Notes: generated from the sequence alone by a model not told the origin. A stretch of 64,000 nt of DNA from an uncultured delta proteobacterium (GCA_963745835.1 CAVUZH010000013.1:704001-768000), one strand, 5' to 3'. Shown: positions 421 through 9,006, counted from the stretch's first letter. Numbers and translations are program-made.

Positions 421-807
421 TCAAAGCCGAAACCGCCTGATACCATCCACAAGTCGTCTGACATTAAAATTGATCAACAATCCTTTAGCGACATTTGCCA
501 GTTTCATGTAGGTGAGCAGTTGAGCTTCATGTATCGCTAAAGTTCTTTCCAGGCTCTTCAATTCCAGGATCACTTGTTCGTTGACCAAGACGTCGATTCT
601 ATAGCCGCAATCGAGGTGAACTCCTTTGTATTCGACCGGCACAGGAACCTGTAAGCGAAACCCAACATCTTGCAGAGATAGTTCTCGCGCTAAACATTGC
701 TCGTAAGCGGACTCAAGCAATCCCGGTCCTAACGTGCGATGGACCTCGATCGCACACCCGATAATCTTTTCCGTCAGCGGATCCCTTTCCGTTCGTTGTA
801 AATCCAA
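421..807 (-). CDS. GxxExxY protein (PD-(D/E)XK nuclease-like)
   Basis: [14 protein letters not shown] motif, YRIDVLV, ELKS, QLLTYMK, GLLINF. Confidence 0.93.
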
Positions 808-858: not shown

Positions 859-3322
859 TCAAGCTGCCTCTTCATAAAGTGCGGATTGTAGCTCGTGAAC
901 CGCTTTCTCAAAGCCGTTTCGGCCGCCGAACTGTTTCAGGAGTTGAACCGGGGTGCCCATAGCATCGAAGGGCGCCACTTTGAGGATACGGGGATCATCG
1001 AGCGCGGTCATGCCTTCGTCCTGATATTTTTGCAGCAACGCTTCGAGCACGGCCCGAGCCTGGTCGCCGTATTTTGTGAACACGTCGCGCTTGCGCACGT
1101 TCTCGACACGGTCACGGCGCGTCAGCGGCGGCTGGTCGAAAGCGACATGGCAGATCAGATCGAAGGGGTCGAGGTTTTTGCCCACTTCTTCAGCTAAAGG
1201 ATCGAGCAACAAGCCTTCGCTCTTTAGCTCCTCGATGATGGCTTCCTTACGTTCGGCACTATTCCATTGGCTCACGAAATCATTGAGGCTGACGAAATGG
1301 TTGCGCAAAGTTTTCTTTGTGTAATCTCGCAGGGTCTCGGTGACGAGCTTGCCGTACTCGTCCAAATATTCAATGCGTTCCGCGACAATCGTCACCGGAT
1401 CGCCGTGAATGTAATATTTCCGCCGACTCGGCGTCGGCGTCAGTTGATATCGTGATATCGGGCGGCTCGCTGTCGACGACAATCACTTCATCCTCGGCGG
1501 GCTCCGGCGGGATCGGCTCCTCTTCGTCGTTCGTCGGCGGCACGTTGTCTGGCGGCGTCACCGGATCATTCTCGCCCGGCTCATAAATCTGCACCGGCTC
1601 GCCGTCGAACTCGGGATCGGCAAAATGGTTGGTCGCCTTACGGAAGTCGATCAGGGTGAAGTAATATTTCTTGGTATCTTCGTGCACTCGCGTGCCGCGG
1701 CCGACGATCTGCTTGAACTCGGTCATTGACTGGACTTCGCGGTCGAGAACGATGAGACGGCAGGTCTGGGCATCGACGCCGGTAGAAAGTAGGCGTGAGG
1801 TGGTAACGATCACCGGATACTTGGCTTCAGGGTCAATGAAGTTGCCGATCTCGGCGCAGCCTTCCGCGTCGTTACCCGTGATGCGCATGATGTACCGCAG
1901 GTTTTGCTGAACTAAGTCCTGGTTTTCATTAACCAGGGCTTGCCGCATGAGAAAAGCGTGCTCGGTGTCGACGCAAAATACGATGGTCTTTTGAAATCGG
2001 TCGCCGCTCTCCTTTAAAAAATCGCTGACTTTGCGCGCGACCCGTTTTGTCCGTTCGTCAATCACCAGCTCACGATCGAAGTCTTTCTGGTTGTAAATGC
2101 GATCTTCGATCTCGTGGCCATACTTGTCGGTTTCGCCTCGTTGAGGACGATAGCCCTCGATATCGACATCCAGATGCACTTTGACGACTTTATAGGGCGC
2201 GAGGAATCCGTCGCGAATACCTTCTTTCAGTGAGTAGCTATAAACCGGCTTGCCGAAATAATGGATATTCGAGACATATTCGGTCTCTTTCGGCGTGGCG
2301 GTGAGACCGATCTGAGTCGCCGAGGAGAAATACTCAAGGACTTCGCGCCAGGCGGAGTCATCCGCCGCGCTGCCGCGGTGGCATTCATCGACGACGATCA
2401 GGTCGAAGAAATCGCGGGATAGTTCGCGGTAGAGTTTTTGACGCTCCTCGGGACCGGTGATCGCCTGATACAGAGCAAGGTAGACTTCGTAAGACGTATC
2501 GATGCGTCGGGATTTCTTATCGATAGCGGTGGGGATTTGAATTTCGCCGCCATCTTCCCGCTCGATAGTTTTCGAGCTGGTGCTGAGCTTGGCCATGGCG
2601 GCGCCGAACGGACGAAAATCGTTGACCATCGTCTGGTCGACTAGGACATTGCGATCCGCAAGAAAGAGGATTCGCTTTCTCTGCCCGGCTTTCCACAAGC
2701 GCCAGATGATCTGAAATGCAGTGTAAGTTTTGCCCGTGCCGGTAGCCATAACCAGAAGAATACGATCCTCGCCTTTGGCGATGGCTTCTATCGTCTTGTT
2801 GATTGCGATTCGCTGGTAATAACGCGGCTCTTTACCGCTGGCATCTTCGTGGTAGTCCTGCAGAACGACTTCTTCTTGCGCCGGCGCCAGGTCCTTCCAC
2901 TTTCGATAGGATTCCCAAAGCTGAGCCGGCGCTGGAAAACCGTCGAGCCCCAGCTCGGTTTCGGTTTGGCTGCTCTGCCCTGTCCGATCGTGAAATAAGA
3001 ATCCGTCGCCGTTCGACGAGAAAACAAATGGGATATCGAGGGTGGCCGCATATTTGATGGCTTGCTGGATGCCGCCGCCGACCGGGTTGTTATTATCTTT
3101 GGCTTCGATCAGAGCGATCGGAATGTTCGGCTTGTAGTAAAGAATGTAATCGGCGCGTTGCGCCTTGCCGCGGGTTACGAGCTTGCCACGTACAATGATC
3201 CGGCCTTTGGTGAAACCAACCTCTTCACGAATCTGCCACTGGATATCCCAACCGGCGTTGACGACTGCAGGCGTAATATACTTCGTGCAAATGTCGCGTT
3301 CGCTGAGGTCTCTTTTGTTCAT
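859..3322 (-). CDS. hsdR: Type I restriction enzyme subunit R (EcoAI/EcoEI type), split by a frameshift near 1420-1440
   Basis: ORF 1370-3322 has IEAK nuclease motif, [29 protein letters not shown]; ORF 859-1482 supplies the C-terminal domain (RRKYYI...[19 protein letters not shown]). Confidence 0.93.
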
Positions 3323-3401
3323 GCCAGGCAGCAGCTCGAAGAACCGGCAGGGTCGAAGTATCTCTCATACCGGGATGGGAGCTCGGAAAATACTAATCGA
3401 A

Positions 3402-3590
3402 ATGGGTAGAAATTCGCAAGAGTTTTCGGAAGACAGGGTCATCAGGGTGGGGCGTGAGTTGTTGAGTTATTCCCTTGCAACCAGCGACTTTGAAGGGCGC
3501 AGCCGTTCAATAGTTCAAACGTTCAAGGTTCAACGGCAGACAAGTCAGAGCTAGACTTCCACGTTTCGAGAATTCCCGAAACGTCGAAAT
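3402..3590 (+). repeat. Palindrome-ended element, copy 1
   Basis: ttccacgtttcgagaattcccgaaacgtcgaa at 3557-3588; upstream 3436-3479 aligns with 4480-4524; also holds gttcaa tandem units. Confidence 0.85.
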
Positions 3591-3911
3591 GCCACTTCTA
3601 ATACCAACCTGGAAATTGGAAAACTTCTCGTCGCCAGCTAACGGGTTCCCGTCTTTGTATTTTGACATTCGTTTTCTGTCGGGTCTCACCACGTGGTCAA
3701 CGTGAGAGCGTGGCAAACTGAACCGTGGCCATCGGCACCCGGGTACCGTCCGCGAGCAGCGGGGTAGGATCATGGGGTTAGGCATGAGTCAGGACTATTA
3801 TCATATTGACCACGCGGGAGGTGGATGCTAGCGTTTGCCTGGTAGAGGATAACTATCGAGCGGCTGCTGTTGTGCTGTGAACGGGGCCATCAAGCCCGGG
3901 AAGGAGCTTTT

Positions 3912-4436
3912 ATGGCGCTTCAATCTCACACCACGAACACACCCACCGTCGTTTCTGAATCTACGGAGATTTCTGGCGTGTACGTCGAAGGTCTCGTCGC
4001 CGGCCTGATTGGCGCGGCGACGATTGCCGTATGGTTTTTCATCCTCGATCTTTATAACGGTAGACCCTTTTACACGCCCAGCGTTTTGGGCGCCGCGCTG
4101 TCTCTTTCCGGAGCCGTCCGTGAATCTGCAACGGTTCCGATCTCGATGGAGTTCGTCATATTCTATTCTTGGATTCACGGTTTAGTGTTTTGTGTGATTG
4201 GCGGATTGGCCGCGAAACTCCTCTCGCTCGCAGAGCGTGATCTTAACTACGGATTCGGTATCTTGCTGCTATTCATCATCTTTGAATTTGGATTTGTTGC
4301 CGTCACAATGGTTTTTGCCGAACCCATACTACGAACTCTGACATGGCCGGCGGTCCTGCTCGGCAATCTACTCGCGGCGGTCGCGATGGCGGTCTATTTT
4401 TGGCGCCATCATCCGACGCTGCGGATCTTACCGTAA
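3912..4436 (+). CDS. Hypothetical multi-pass membrane protein
   Basis: About 4 hydrophobic segments; AAGGAG RBS before ATG 3912. Confidence 0.8.
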   Translation: MALQSHTTNTPTVVSESTEISGVYVEGLVAGLIGAATIAVWFFILDLYNGRPFYTPSVLGAALSLSGAVRESATVPISMEFVIFYSWIHGLVFCVIGGLAAKLLSLAERDLNYGFGILLLFIIFEFGFVAVTMVFAEPILRTLTWPAVLLGNLLAAVAMAVYFWRHHPTLRILP

Positions 4437-4450
4437 GTGCGAAAGGCAGC

Positions 4451-4623
4451 GCGGTGGAATTTGATTTCTTTATCGAGCGGGGATCATTCGGGTTTGGCGT
4501 AAGTTATTGAGTTGTTTCCCTGCATTACCCACTTGAGATTTTCGCAGCAGTCTCCGCGGGGAACGACCGCGGCAACGAAAGAGAGGAACTTCGACGTTTC
4601 GGGAATTCCCGAAACGTCGAAAT
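4451..4623 (+). repeat. Palindrome-ended element, copy 2
   Basis: Perfect 32-bp palindrome TTCGACGTTTCGGGAATTCCCGAAACGTCGAA at 4590-4621. Confidence 0.9.
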
Positions 4624-5227
4624 AATAAATCATTCAAATCGGCTGGAAGTGTGAACCGCACACCTCTAACAGCGAACCTCAGCCGTTCCATGTTGGGGTT
4701 TGCCCCTGCGACGATTTCACACCTTACCATCCTCGACACCTCAGCCACTTTCCACGTTTCGCATGCGCAAACTTGATAAGCATCGCTGCTGCGGAAGAGC
4801 TGACCTACAGGTAGTCGCGGCTATGCCGTCCCTCCGGCAACCACCGGCCTTTGCCATGGTCTAGCGCCCCGTTGATGTCATAGACATTCTCCCCGCAAAA
4901 GACGGCTCTCGATATACCGGAGCAGTTGTGCTTGATCTGCCGTTCCGCTCACATAAGCGCTTCGCCAAAACTCAGCGCCAATCGTCTTGGTCGGCGGCAG
5001 GACTAAAGTTCTGCGCGGAGTAACTGGCCTGAGCGGCTTTTCGAAATAGCGGTTAGCGGACTTGGGATAAGGGAAAGGAGATTCGCAAGAGCATTGCTGG
5101 GTGCGATGAGGAGGATAATGCCGATTCGAAATGAGGCTTTGTCTCCGTTTGCGCGCTCTGGGGATCACCATTTATGCTCGATCAGTGCGAATTCTAAGAA
5201 CACGACTCCGGAAGCTCGGGAGGTGGT

Positions 5228-6184
5228 ATGATGAAGGCCGTTAAGAAAAACTTGCAGTTTATAACGGTAGCGCTCCTTGTGCTCATTGCCACAATTGCCA
5301 CTATTCATTTTCCGTACGATGTGGATGCGCCCCTTACTCCTCAGGAAATCGAGGCAGCTCGAAAATACTACACAGATGCATATAAGAAGCCTCCAATCGA
5401 AAGCCAAGGAAGCTCTGAATACGAGACTAAATATATTCAAGTATCTGAAGCCGCTGCTCGAAGTGAGCGTATCGAAGAACAGGTCAGTGCATTTGTTCAG
5501 AATTTTAATCTAAGCGACCGACCAGTTTTGGAAATCGGTTCAGGTCGAGGCTATTTACAGGATGTTGCGCAAAACTATACAGGACTCGATATCTCTCCCA
5601 GCGTGGCGCGCTTCTATCACAAGCGATTTGTTCTCGGCTCGGCAACGGCAATGCCGTTTCCAGAAAACAGCTTCGACGGTATTTGGTCGATTTGGGTGTT
5701 CGAGCATGTACCCAATCCAGAGCAGGCGTTTTATGAAGCTCGGCGTGTCGTACGGGACAAAGGAGTGCTTTTCCTACTTCCCGCATGGAATTGTACCTCC
5801 TGGGCTGCCGAAGGTTACAACGTCAGGCCCTATTCTGATTTCGACTTGGTGGGAAAAATCGTCAAAGCAAGTATTCCGCTGAGGTCTTCAGTACTCTTTA
5901 CGCAAATGGCTTTAGTACCGAACCGAGTTGTCCGTCGTCTTGTCGCTCTACTTGGGCCGACCCGACTGAGATATCGCCGTCTCACTCCGAATTACGAAGA
6001 GTTCTGGGGCCCAGACAGCGACGCGGTGAACTCGATCGATAGCCATGAAGCAATGCTGTGGTTCCTAAGCCGCGGTGATGAATGCTTAAATTGTTACAAT
6101 GCTTCAACATACGACTTTTTCCGGAACATCCATCGAATAGACGAATACCCGCTCATTATTCGCGTTCATAAGTCGGCGGAATAG
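5228..6184 (+). CDS. Class I SAM-dependent methyltransferase with N-terminal membrane anchor
   Basis: VLEIGSGRG, GLDIS, GSATAMPFPENSFD, VFEHV motifs; GGAGG RBS. Confidence 0.88.
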   Translation: MMKAVKKNLQFITVALLVLIATIATIHFPYDVDAPLTPQEIEAARKYYTDAYKKPPIESQGSSEYETKYIQVSEAAARSERIEEQVSAFVQNFNLSDRPVLEIGSGRGYLQDVAQNYTGLDISPSVARFYHKRFVLGSATAMPFPENSFDGIWSIWVFEHVPNPEQAFYEARRVVRDKGVLFLLPAWNCTSWAAEGYNVRPYSDFDLVGKIVKASIPLRSSVLFTQMALVPNRVVRRLVALLGPTRLRYRRLTPNYEEFWGPDSDAVNSIDSHEAMLWFLSRGDECLNCYNASTYDFFRNIHRIDEYPLIIRVHKSAE

Positions 6185-6250
6185 CAAACGGCAGGTCACC
6201 GCGAAAGCCGAAAACTACCGGCTCACGGCAGAAATTACGGCATTATCCGG

Positions 6251-6372
6251 GAGGTGGAAGTTTGTCGGCCGGTGAAGTGAACGATTCGGTGTAAGCGTTT
6301 CGAGTCGTATCGACGCGAGACCGAGGGCAAAGGAGGGACTTCCACGTTCGAGAATTCCCGAAACGTCGAAAT
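6251..6372 (+). repeat. Palindrome-ended element, copy 3 (shorter)
   Basis: ttccacgttcgagaattcccgaaacgtcgaa at 6340-6370. Confidence 0.85.
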
Positions 6373-6481
6373 GAGATGCCAAGACAGGTTTCCACTGTTA
6401 GCTCCTTCTCAGTGATGATTTTCTAGGACGAGAAGTGGTCGACCACGATTTGACCGACCTTCCGATCGTGCGACTCAGTGG

Positions 6482-7504
6482 TTACTTTCTCTTCAACACT
6501 TCATCGACCAGCGACGGGTCCGCCACTTGCTCCCATGAGACGTTTGCGGCGCCTTCCGATTGCAAAACGGCTTTAACGGCGTCGGCGGAGATGCGAACGT
6601 CCTCGACGATCAGCGGGACATAAATATTATACGATTCGAGCGCAGTCGCTTCGTCGGTGGAAAAAAACTCGCGCAAGAACCGGATCGCTTCGGCCTTTTG
6701 GCTCTTGATCCAATGCATCGCATCGATTTGCGCCTGGATCATCCGTTTCACTTGGTCCCGGTTGCGCTCGATCTTCGTGGCCGTTGTCGACAGTCCGGTA
6801 AAAGGTATCTGAAGAACGTCGCCGGCCGAGCCGAGAAAGCGAAAGCCCTGTTGTTTGGCGAGCACCGAGTGCGGTAATGACAGCGTCGCCGCATCCATTT
6901 GTCCGGCGAGCAAAGCTTGATAGCGTGTCTCGGAGCCGCCCATCGAGATCACGGCGGCGTCTCTTTTCGGATCCAGACCGGCCTTTTGGAGCAGAGCGCG
7001 AGCCACCAAGTCGTCGGTGGCGCCGATATTCGAGATCGCGATCTTCTTGCCGCGCAGCTCGCTTATCGACTGCAAATTCGGCCGCGCCACTAACGTGTGA
7101 AAAGATGACTTGAGCCCAATCGTAACCAGCTTGAGCGGAATACCCTTAGCCGCCGCCCTTATGACCGTGCCGGTCATCCAACTGTAGTCGATCTCACCGG
7201 CATGCAGAGCGACCACCGACAGGTTGGGCCGAATTGTGATGACTTCCGAGTCGATGCCGTATTTGCGAAAAAACCCCTTCTCATGCGCGACCCACGGATC
7301 GAAGAAGCCGATGGACTGGGAAGAAACACCGATGAGCACCCGTTCGCGACCAGGTTCGGCCGCCGGCGCGGTTGCAATCCCGATGGTGCACGAAAGTAGA
7401 ATTACGATTGGCGCAGCGGCGCGGAGTGAGCGGAGTTCCAAAAAACGTTTTTCTCTGCAGCCTCTGCGTCTCCGCGATGAAGAAGAATCTTCAGTCCGTG
7501 TCAT
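6482..7504 (-). CDS. ABC-type substrate-binding protein, NMT1/SsuA-like (start uncertain)
   Basis: WVAHEKGFFRKYGID, ELRGKKIAIS, RYQALLAGQMDA; the ORF 5' end overlaps a repeat element. Confidence 0.88.
   Translation of the reverse strand: MTRTEDSSSSRRRRGCREKRFLELRSLRAAAPIVILLSCTIGIATAPAAEPGRERVLIGVSSQSIGFFDPWVAHEKGFFRKYGIDSEVITIRPNLSVVALHAGEIDYSWMTGTVIRAAAKGIPLKLVTIGLKSSFHTLVARPNLQSISELRGKKIAISNIGATDDLVARALLQKAGLDPKRDAAVISMGGSETRYQALLAGQMDAATLSLPHSVLAKQQGFRFLGSAGDVLQIPFTGLSTTATKIERNRDQVKRMIQAQIDAMHWIKSQKAEAIRFLREFFSTDEATALESYNIYVPLIVEDVRISADAVKAVLQSEGAANVSWEQVADPSLVDEVLKRK
7411..7481. repeat. REP-like CGCAGAG/CTCTGCG hairpin element
   Basis: ...gagttccaaaaaacgtttttctctgcagcctctgcgtctccgcgatgaa; aligns with 9067-9140. 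Confidence 0.75.
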
Positions 7505-7515
7505 TTGAATCGGTT

Positions 7516-9006
7516 TTACTGCAGAAGCGCCGAGCCGCCATCGTCGCCGATGGTGAGGCTCACGGTCGCCGGGTTCCCAGTCCTAATCAGACTCGCGCCC
7601 TCTCCTTCTGCCTCGAGTTGAAACGTCCCGCCGTCCAGTTGAGTGATTCTCACGTCCAGATTGTCAATCTCGCTCTGGAAGGTGAAACTGGCTCGTCCAT
7701 TGGGCTGGGCCGGATGTGATATGAAAGAGCCTGCAGGGATAGTTCTGAAGAAGTTTCCGACTTGCAGCACCACGCCTTCAGTGAGGGGATTAATACCGTT
7801 GCTCCCGGCACCGACGGTGAAATTTCCATTCACTGCGAACGTACCCGGCGGAGCCAAGGCGATGTCGCCTTGGACCATGAATGCTGCGAAAGGCACTGGA
7901 GACTGACCGGCTATTGTGACGCCAAGAGGAATGTGCCCGGTCGTGAATGGAGAACCGCCGATCGGGCTCAGAGCGCCCGTGGCGCTGTTAATAGTATAAG
8001 CCGACACGCTATTGGAATTGTTATTGGCAACGTAGGCGAACTTTCCCGAGGGATCTACCACCACTGAGATTGGAGCAGATCCGGTGGGGAACGGAGAACC
8101 GCTGACCGGACTCAGAGCACCCGTGGCGCTGTTAATGGTGTAAGCCGACACGCTATTGGAATTGTTATTGGCAACGTAGGCGAACTTTCCCGAGGGATCT
8201 ACCACCACGGCGATAGGAGCAGAACCGGTTGAGAACGGAGAACCGCTGACCGGGCTCAGAGCACCGGTAGCCATATTGATGGTATAAGCCGACACATTAT
8301 TGGAAATGTTATTCACCACGTAGGCGAACTTTCCCGAGGGATCTACCGCCACGTCATACGGACGGGTCCCGGCTGCGAACGGAGAACCACCGATTGGGCT
8401 CAGAACGCCCGTGATGCTATTGATCGTGTAAGCCGACACGCTGCTGCTCCCTGAATTTGTCACGTAGACGAACCTTCCCGAGGGATCTACCGTCACGGAG
8501 ATAGGCATGAACCCGGTTGGGAAAGGAGAGCCGCCAACCGGGCTCAGAGCGCCCGTGGTGTTATTGATCGTATAAGCCGAAACGTTACTGCTCCCTAAAT
8601 TCGCCACGTAGATGAACCTTCCCGAGGGATCTACCGCCACGTCATACGGACGGGTCCCGGCTGCGAACGGAGAACCGCCGATTGGGCTCAGAGCGCCCGT
8701 GGTGCTATTGATCGCGTAAGCCGACACGCTGCTGCTCCCTGAATTCGCCACATACGTGAATTTTCCGGAGGGATCTACCACCACACCGAGAGGAACAGAC
8801 CCGGTGGGGAACGGAGAGCCGCCGACCATGCTCAAAGCGCCCGTGGTGCTATTGATGGTGTAAGCCGACACGCTGCTGCCCCCCGAGTTCGTCACGTAGA
8901 CGAACTTAGGCATTCCACTGCTCACGGCATGATTAGCAATCGCCATGAGGAGAACAATGAGCCCGCCTGTAAAATAGGCCTTAGACAATTCGCCTGCGCG
9001 TTTCAT
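7516..9006 (-). CDS. Secreted 7-bladed beta-propeller (lactonase-family fold) with C-terminal beta domain
   Basis: Signal-like N-terminus; seven 48-aa repeats F.YV.N..S..VSAY.IN..TG.LS...GSPF..G..P....VDPSG. Confidence 0.9.
   Translation of the reverse strand: MKRAGELSKAYFTGGLIVLLMAIANHAVSSGMPKFVYVTNSGGSSVSAYTINSTTGALSMVGGSPFPTGSVPLGVVVDPSGKFTYVANSGSSSVSAYAINSTTGALSPIGGSPFAAGTRPYDVAVDPSGRFIYVANLGSSNVSAYTINNTTGALSPVGGSPFPTGFMPISVTVDPSGRFVYVTNSGSSSVSAYTINSITGVLSPIGGSPFAAGTRPYDVAVDPSGKFAYVVNNISNNVSAYTINMATGALSPVSGSPFSTGSAPIAVVVDPSGKFAYVANNNSNSVSAYTINSATGALSPVSGSPFPTGSAPISVVVDPSGKFAYVANNNSNSVSAYTINSATGALSPIGGSPFTTGHIPLGVTIAGQSPVPFAAFMVQGDIALAPPGTFAVNGNFTVGAGSNGINPLTEGVVLQVGNFFRTIPAGSFISHPAQPNGRASFTFQSEIDNLDVRITQLDGGTFQLEAEGEGASLIRTGNPATVSLTIGDDGGSALLQ
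7915..8905. repeat. Seven tandem 144-bp intragenic repeats
   Basis: Recurring ggatctacc / ggctcagagc / taagccgacac blocks with 144-bp period. Confidence 0.9.

Follow-up and report, generated by a model that had tools for sequence, protein, structure and literature searches.

What are the three co-oriented palindromic elements that lie near the beginning of a 64,000-nucleotide stretch of DNA from an uncultured delta proteobacterium, and do they form part of a larger system? The stretch, here called the window (GCA_963745835.1 CAVUZH010000013.1:704001-768000), is C13:704001-768000 of the genome that we designate G000, and coordinates given without a prefix are positions in the whole window. A sequence-only reading had described a perfect 32-bp palindrome at 4590-4621, with variants at 3557-3588 and 6340-6370, and had suggested that the three delimit single-gene cassettes. 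The palindromes are confirmed, the complete unit being 36 bp. Copy 1 (3555-3590, plus strand, ACTTCCACGTTTCGAGAATTCCCGAAACGTCGAAAT) is the family consensus itself, identical to the consensus built from 132 sites of related genomes; copy 2 (4588-4623, plus strand) contains the perfect palindrome; and copy 3 (6338-6372, plus strand) has a one-nucleotide deletion in its left arm. All three belong to subtype A. The reversed site pattern, used as a control, gave 0 matches in 41 genomes and 0 in 90 genomes, and the palindromes are therefore not due to chance.

The most likely answer, judging from sequence comparisons, is that these elements belong to a real and apparently undescribed cassette-array system, in which the joints would be binding sites of an ArsR-fold protein. 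In the reading that we consider probable, the 36-bp quasi-palindrome would serve both as the site of an ArsR/SmtB-fold homodimer and as the joint of arrays whose cassettes are exchanged by crossover inside the sites, with no dedicated enzyme. The window is a decayed three-site outlier of this family-wide system. No description of such a system was found in the portion of the full-text literature that was covered, most subscription papers lying outside it.

Neighbors exchanged exactly at the site

The genome that holds the window carries about 21 subtype-A copies, with 16 in a single row (C13:11.3-37.7 kb), three in the window, and single copies on C5 and C22. Within the 26-kb row, 10 near-intact copies are all on the plus strand and 6 are decayed. 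The genes of the row encode PIN toxins, ParE, a HicB-like antitoxin, DUF4258, DUF5615 and DUF5647 proteins, an HNH nuclease and a helix-turn-helix antitoxin, with some transporter genes interspersed; most of the toxin-antitoxin (TA) genes are on the minus strand and end near the right side of a site. A looser version of the site pattern is present in 65 of the 86 published genomes of this Ca. Binatia family (69 of 90 when four unpublished genomes are included). When at most three mismatches are allowed, the site is found in 18 of 24 genomes of the family, or 16 of 22 once two unpublished genomes are set aside, and in 0 of 16 genomes from two other families. Genomes with the exact site are almost all Ca. 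Binatia or deltaproteobacterial metagenome-assembled genomes, and neither the site nor the ArsR-fold protein was found on viral contigs.

Across the assembled sequences the sites are clustered and co-oriented, neighboring sites having the same orientation in 214 cases and the opposite one in 22. Comparison of 415 distinct sites with flanks reveals 320 pairs that share the left 45 bp only, 264 that share the right only, and 115 that share both; only a few bases away from the site, identity between loci is down to background, and one left-flank family is paired with 29 right-flank families. Moreover, of 463 intervals tested, 10 distinct ones gave 12 filled/empty matches, in which the outer neighbors are the same with and without 59-3443 bp between two sites. 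An opposite-strand open reading frame (ORF) stops 5-15 bp from the right end of the site in 49 of 290 cases, as compared with 4 of 290 in both controls. These alignments show that left and right neighbors are exchanged exactly at the site. A fixed crossover point within the site was sought in the flank comparisons and not found: sites that share a left or a right flank differ by 1.97 versus 1.87 mismatches and agree in subtype at frequencies of 0.82 versus 0.85, with few informative positions, and because the site tracks both flanks about equally, no fixed crossover could be placed.

These results bear directly on the sequence-only reading. Its proposal of an integron-like array with an undescribed site survives insofar as cassettes are shuffled at the site; membership among integrons, pdif modules, REP (repetitive extragenic palindromic) elements or miniature inverted-repeat transposable elements (MITEs) does not. 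Scattered copies in random orientation, with no shuffling of cargo, had been named as the signature of an ordinary REP/MITE, and what is seen is clustering, co-orientation and exchange of neighbors. The cargo consists of TA and defense genes.

Pairs of sites 51-76 bp apart, often of two subtypes, recur at several loci (L031, L036, L063, L074, L084, L088 and L094) and are possibly empty cassettes.

The ArsR-fold protein and its probable binding site

The commonest cassette is a gene for a 99-amino-acid ArsR-fold protein, about 385 bp from site to site, which the sequence-only reading had missed. The protein has 411 close homologues and an ArsR/SmtB winged-helix fold (predicted structure with a pLDDT of 93.7 and a TM-score of ~0.8 to CzrA and NolR); no known catalytic domain was found in it. 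Cys12 is invariant in 26 close members and is not among the conserved columns of distant ones. Distant relatives occur in WOR-3 and other groups. In a sample of the phylum the protein occurs in 2 of 301 genomes, both of the Ca. Binatia family, and plasmids yielded only generic ArsR matches of <45% identity.

The gene is bracketed by sites. Among 84 distinct full-length copies, 78 have enough flank for palindrome scoring, and a palindrome is found upstream of 68, downstream of 71 and on both sides of 64 of these, while 5.8% of 2000 random windows pass the same scoring. In most cases the downstream site begins 3-8 bp beyond the stop codon. The end of the upstream site falls at one of two distances from the start codon, either ~41 bp, immediately above a TTGACA-like hexamer, or 6-14 bp. 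Where the ArsR protein diverges, the sites diverge with it but still match each other, and sites of that subtype are found again around neighboring cargo. Subtype-A proteins carry Gln47/Thr48, and subtype-B proteins Pro47/Arg48/Asn51. Where residue 48 is Thr, proteins with Gln47 have C at base 13 of the downstream site in 38 of 38 cases, and those with another residue at position 47 have T in 25 of 27. Twenty new regions contributed 18 further copies, 14 of them with a readable helix and an adjacent site; Arg48 predicts C14 in 12 of 12, both non-Arg proteins have G14, and in the same 14 copies Asn51 occurs with T13 and His51 with G13. As these alignments show, site and protein co-vary. The specificity bases lie 4.5-5.5 bp from the dyad, which is where ArsR helices contact DNA, the recognition helices of this family reading consecutive major grooves according to the part of the CadC preprint that deals with them (bioRxiv 10.64898/2026.09.30.755606). 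Since the inner bases of the site change with the recognition-helix residues, and since the gene is bracketed by sites, we predict with considerable confidence that the 36-bp element is the binding site of the ArsR-fold protein.

The distribution across genomes is consistent with this prediction. The median number of site-pattern hits is 10 in the 42 published genomes with the ArsR gene and 1 in the 44 without it. The difference also holds within single genera, one of which has 10 hits with the gene and 0 without. G000 itself has one intact ArsR copy, of subtype B, together with broken ones, and its assembly, 97% complete, holds no intact subtype-A copy; therefore, the subtype-A sites of the window appear to be orphaned. 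The intact subtype-B gene (L002:928-1230) is carried by the main array (G000:C13:11300-37750, comprising L001 and L002). Two other loci, L124 and L125, have an ArsR gene with a divergent subtype of site next to what we take, from ORF starts, to be CRISPR-Cas genes and an array.

How cassettes may be exchanged

If the sites are indeed both operators and joints, a module (on the minus strand here) would run from a site through a promoter or leader and one or more TA/defense genes to a stop codon that falls a few bases short of the next site. Crossover between co-oriented sites, at some point inside the 36 bp, would add, remove and rearrange modules; exchange would proceed with no recombinase gene in the array, and the ArsR gene would itself be one such cassette. 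Homology-driven crossover by host enzymes, with the bound protein a passive occupant of the site, is one tentative form of this scheme; a form in which the bound protein helps to pair the sites is also possible, if rather doubtful. The bound protein may in addition repress or insulate the modules.

Several observations weigh against crossover between protein-bound sites. At 36 bp the sites offer little length for efficient RecA exchange, and crossover between sites already in place gives no account of how an unrelated gene first gains a site after its stop codon. The stop-adjacent cargo amounts to 17 families in all: of 60 sites with a stop within 20 bp, 28 follow the ArsR gene itself, 11 a Phd-like antitoxin and 6 ORF6N, and the 14 other families probably include some spurious ORFs. 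The filled/empty pairs are not comparisons of orthologous chromosomes. In the one orthologous comparison available for the window, the locus of G006, a genome of the same genus, matches the window over 3260-4460 and again from 6480 on, while the sequence in between is different cargo and lacks copies 2 and 3; these breakpoints, 4460 and 6480, are not at sites, so that the window locus has also been reshaped by ordinary deletion. No circle junction appeared among 15 of 54 joints listed from the contigs of four runs; these contigs end at sites or continue into other neighbors, and repeats alone can cause such breaks. As regards the code, site subtype changes only 5 times on a tree of 73 proteins (the minimum is 4), so that it rests on few independent events. 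Co-inheritance of the ArsR gene with its flanking sites explains part of it, and two loci, L133 and L194, break the residue-48 rule. Finally, 6 of the 44 genomes without the ArsR gene still have at least 5 pattern hits, and the genome comparison includes non-independent kin and assemblies that are mostly fragmented.

Among the alternatives, the one that fares best, though we regard it as unlikely, is that an unlinked site-specific recombinase of the tyrosine or serine type acts on the sites in trans, with the ArsR-fold protein as regulator or accessory. An enzyme of this kind would fit the asymmetry conserved at base pairs 2/35 and 6/31, the strict co-orientation, the sharp spacing from stop to site, and a few filled/empty cases in which the site stays with the gene whose end it marks. 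In addition, one lone site has a tyrosine recombinase at 3 kb (G044, L102:13660-14709), and one array a pair of large serine recombinases at 5-8 kb (G041, L105:10333-14247). The searches nevertheless point the other way. As the sequence-only reading had stated, no recombinase is adjacent, and we found no consistent tyrosine or serine recombinase at site loci and no tyrosine recombinase beside the main arrays of five larger assemblies. When 19 recombinase and transposase queries were run by tblastn against 253 loci, the only tyrosine-recombinase locus was that of one of the queries themselves; serine-recombinase loci or fragments were few, and RAYT-like (REP-associated tyrosine transposase) and IS110 matches were scattered at no fixed distance. 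Near the sites, family scans of 67 recurring proteins and of 121 long ones (the latter by NCBIfam, 118 of them from 302 long ORFs) returned TA, nuclease and metabolic genes and isolated insertion-sequence transposases. The lack of a fixed crossover in the flank comparisons counts against such an enzyme, as does a separate dif-like site at G000:C3 ~2224-2251, which has an XerD arm with one mismatch and is a candidate chromosomal dif. With this site on C3 and no XerD-arm match in the window, we rejected the 36-bp element as the chromosomal dif. Integron integrase (IntI) matches are present in 42 of 90 family genomes (33 above the cut-off), separate from these arrays, and no full IntI was found in G000. 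IntI tracks site number weakly, the median being 5 with it and 1.5 without, and 14 genomes with at least 8 hits lack it; IntI acting in trans was set aside because of this weak association.

The resemblance to integrons and to CALIN elements (clusters of attC sites lacking integron integrases) is a matter of architecture: co-oriented single-gene or TA cassettes that are TA-rich, are reordered, and have the gene ending just before a palindromic site (PMC5027507, in the sections on cassettes). The attC sites described there are 57-141 bp long, are conserved in structure, and carry R boxes RYYYAAC/GTTRRRY. The site here, in contrast, is 36 bp and conserved in sequence, and its ends lack a match to RYYYAAC/GTTRRRY. 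It has no extrahelical bases, only in-register mismatches and a 4-nt loop; no linked intI or attI is present, and it is the cognate ArsR-fold protein that travels in the array. Membership was rejected on the grounds of attC size, R boxes, extrahelical bases and an intI/attI head. Acinetobacter pdif modules are likewise shuffled TA or accessory modules bounded by short sites, with an enzyme that the modules do not encode; their sites consist of a XerC arm, a 6-bp spacer and a XerD arm, and C and D modules alternate, as described in part of PMC13141974. By comparison, the sites here lack this arrangement of arms and spacer, they are direct repeats, as the orientation counts show, and the genome has its own dif-like site elsewhere. 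A pdif-like array is therefore not borne out, the window having no XerD-arm match and its sites no alternating orientation.

That the sites are purely a regulon, operators or roadblocks whose position results incidentally from modules being duplicated, deleted and degraded, without special exchange at them, is improbable. Several ArsR clades do have the upstream site 6-14 bp before the start, the classical position for autorepression, and many array modules, those of the window included, are broken. However, hundreds of pairs of loci lose their homology exactly at the site, and a symmetric operator requires neither co-orientation nor a position just after a stop codon. Known ArsR/SmtB regulators (CadC, CzrA, SmtB and NolR) share the fold, the helix-read palindrome and a site at their own promoter, as far as the CadC preprint cited above sets these out; here, unlike there, a second site lies just after the stop, dozens of sites bound unrelated genes, the gene moves as a cassette and comes in several specificity classes, and there is no metal-resistance operon. 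RptR, BrxR/CapW, CapR and the C proteins are also small regulators with palindromic sites before restriction-modification (R-M) or defense genes. They have other folds, and their sites lie in one promoter and are not reported as exchange joints in the portion of PMC12255303 that covers them.

A very improbable alternative is that the ArsR-fold protein is itself a recombinase or nicking enzyme. It is the only family that tracks the sites and is bracketed like a mobile unit, and Arg7, Ser9, Arg10, Arg13, Tyr73 and Lys76 are invariant in the 26 close members and mostly kept in 56 distant ones. Yet the fold is plainly that of ArsR and no known catalytic domain accompanies it, such basic and aromatic residues are what one would expect where a wing and helix bind DNA, and a search among longer proteins for a fused form, a weak test, gave 2 matches, neither a recombinase.

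Least probable of all is a REP/MITE-like hairpin that was spread by a HUH (RAYT-type) transposase and later adopted by the ArsR protein, which would suit the size of the site, its position after stop codons, the co-variation of its arms and the RAYT-like fragments 0.7-6 kb from sites at several loci, but is countered by clustered rather than genome-wide copies in direct rather than inverted pairs, by the lack of a GTAG/CGTC tag outside the stem, by a copy 3 that folds no better than shuffles (z -0.6), by co-variation that follows the protein clade, and by RAYT genes at no fixed position. REPs and bacterial interspersed mosaic elements (BIMEs) with RAYT are 20-40-bp palindromes downstream of coding regions, in the part of PMC3733652 that defines them; the sites here differ in having no terminal tag, low copy number, clustering with mobile cargo and direct orientation. 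The CGTC of the site is inside the right arm and paired, so there is no unpaired end tag; membership of the REP/MITE families is not supported.

Returning to arrays joined at the predicted ArsR sites, a broader proposal that we advance tentatively is that they constitute a third cassette platform beside integrons and dif modules. The ArsR-fold protein would bind, pair or even cut its own sites, TA and defense genes would be captured and shuffled without a classical recombinase, specificity classes set by three helix residues would keep several cassette pools going in parallel, and WOR-3 may have the same design. The system bears on the way in which bacteria build and rearrange defense islands without integrons, and if the protein drives exchange, a family so far known for sensing metals and redox state would gain a new function. 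Both the 36-bp site and the 99-amino-acid protein, with its readable specificity code, lend themselves to direct tests in vitro and in a laboratory strain. The site also provides a search handle for cassette-borne defense and TA genes in an abundant uncultured soil lineage.

The window and its neighborhood

To the right of copies 1 and 3 in the window lie the remains of minus-strand cargo. Copy 1 is followed by the 3' stub of an HNH-nuclease cassette (3591-3630, minus strand), 87% identical to a longer copy at C13:12899-12974, and copy 3 by the 3' stub of a PIN/VapC toxin cassette (6373-6490, minus strand; 83% to C13:29296-29448). The right-flank stub of copy 2 (4624-4657) is common to the sites at C13:30379 and C13:37683. 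Further right come a decayed subtype-B site (4747-4780, plus strand), which stands in front of an ArsR-fold 5' pseudogene stub (4773-4861, plus strand) with an in-frame stop after ~13 codons, and a TA pair remnant (4873-5128, minus strand) made up of a DUF5615 C-terminus and the next gene, 80% identical to C13:23712-23965.

The sequence-only reading had assigned one plus-strand gene to each interval as its cassette. These genes encode a membrane protein without a Pfam hit (3870-4436, plus strand; also present in the orthologous locus of G006) and an S-adenosylmethionine-dependent methyltransferase (5228-6184, plus strand; absent from that locus), and both are passengers. The intervals also hold minus-strand stubs and the ArsR pseudogene, and the plus strand is the wrong one, the true cargo ending just right of a site on the minus strand. 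Homologues have a site within ~1.5 kb at 0 of 10 loci for the methyltransferase and at 1 of 13, a direct orthologue, for the membrane protein (one unpublished locus being left out of these counts). Same-strand stops to the left of sites are as frequent as at random places, with 4 of 290 versus 4 of 290 at 5-15 bp and 83 versus 81 at 120-300 bp. On the basis of the homologue loci without sites and of these controls, the plus-strand genes were ruled out as cassettes. The distances of ~154 and 156 bp that had been given from their stops to the palindromes are correct, although the spacing has no counterpart in the family, and the supposed GGT(A/G)GAA..TT "start" is not meaningful, being 151, 136 and 86 bp from the palindromes and outside the aligned leader; we treat both as chance, given the varying distances and the spacing without a family counterpart.

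The homology noted upstream of copies 1 and 2 (3436-3479 versus 4480-4524) is genuine, at 77%, and both segments are stubs of a ~280-bp leader. One stub (3436-3491; nhmmer E 0.002) lies between copy 1 and the HsdR start and contains an IHF-like motif with 1-2 mismatches to the consensus. A longer one (4481-4579; E 6e-14) lies left of copy 2, and nhmmer found none at copy 3. Complete leaders (L002:1960-2243 and its copies) contain an IHF-like motif, are bounded by a direct repeat at either end, and stand between sites and unrelated downstream genes. The leader has no Rfam match. Among 90 genomes it is restricted to the genus of G000 (3 genomes), with one marginal 29-bp match elsewhere, a distribution that rules it out as a general part of the system. 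A structured RNA, another of the earlier suggestions, also found no backing, as no Rfam match came near its gathering threshold (the best scored 26.6 bits versus 114) and nothing was found in a 40-kb array. An intrinsic terminator was rejected as a general feature, since copy 2 alone passes the scan.

A type I R-M defense operon begins just beyond copy 1 in the direction of the cargo. A frameshift splits its HsdR gene (859-3322, minus strand), which begins 233 bp away from copy 1, at 3322, and HsdM continues into a shifted frame (window 859-3322 HsdR region and L006:11687-14501); given the many split genes in the assembly, the HsdR/HsdM frameshifts suggest read errors. Judging from ORF starts, the large row and three other genomes presumably have a defense operon past their first site as well. 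The operon also contains a PD-(D/E)XK_3 gene (421-807, minus strand) flanked by complementary 7-base micro-repeats at 269-361 and 809-839, and further defense-like genes lie to the left of the HsdR/HsdM region. A beta-propeller gene at 7516-9006 is built of six 144-bp tandem units. Finally, runs of GTTCAA words (6-7 bases) often stand directly left of sites, as at 3503-3535 of the window and at many other loci, and are also scattered through the genome.

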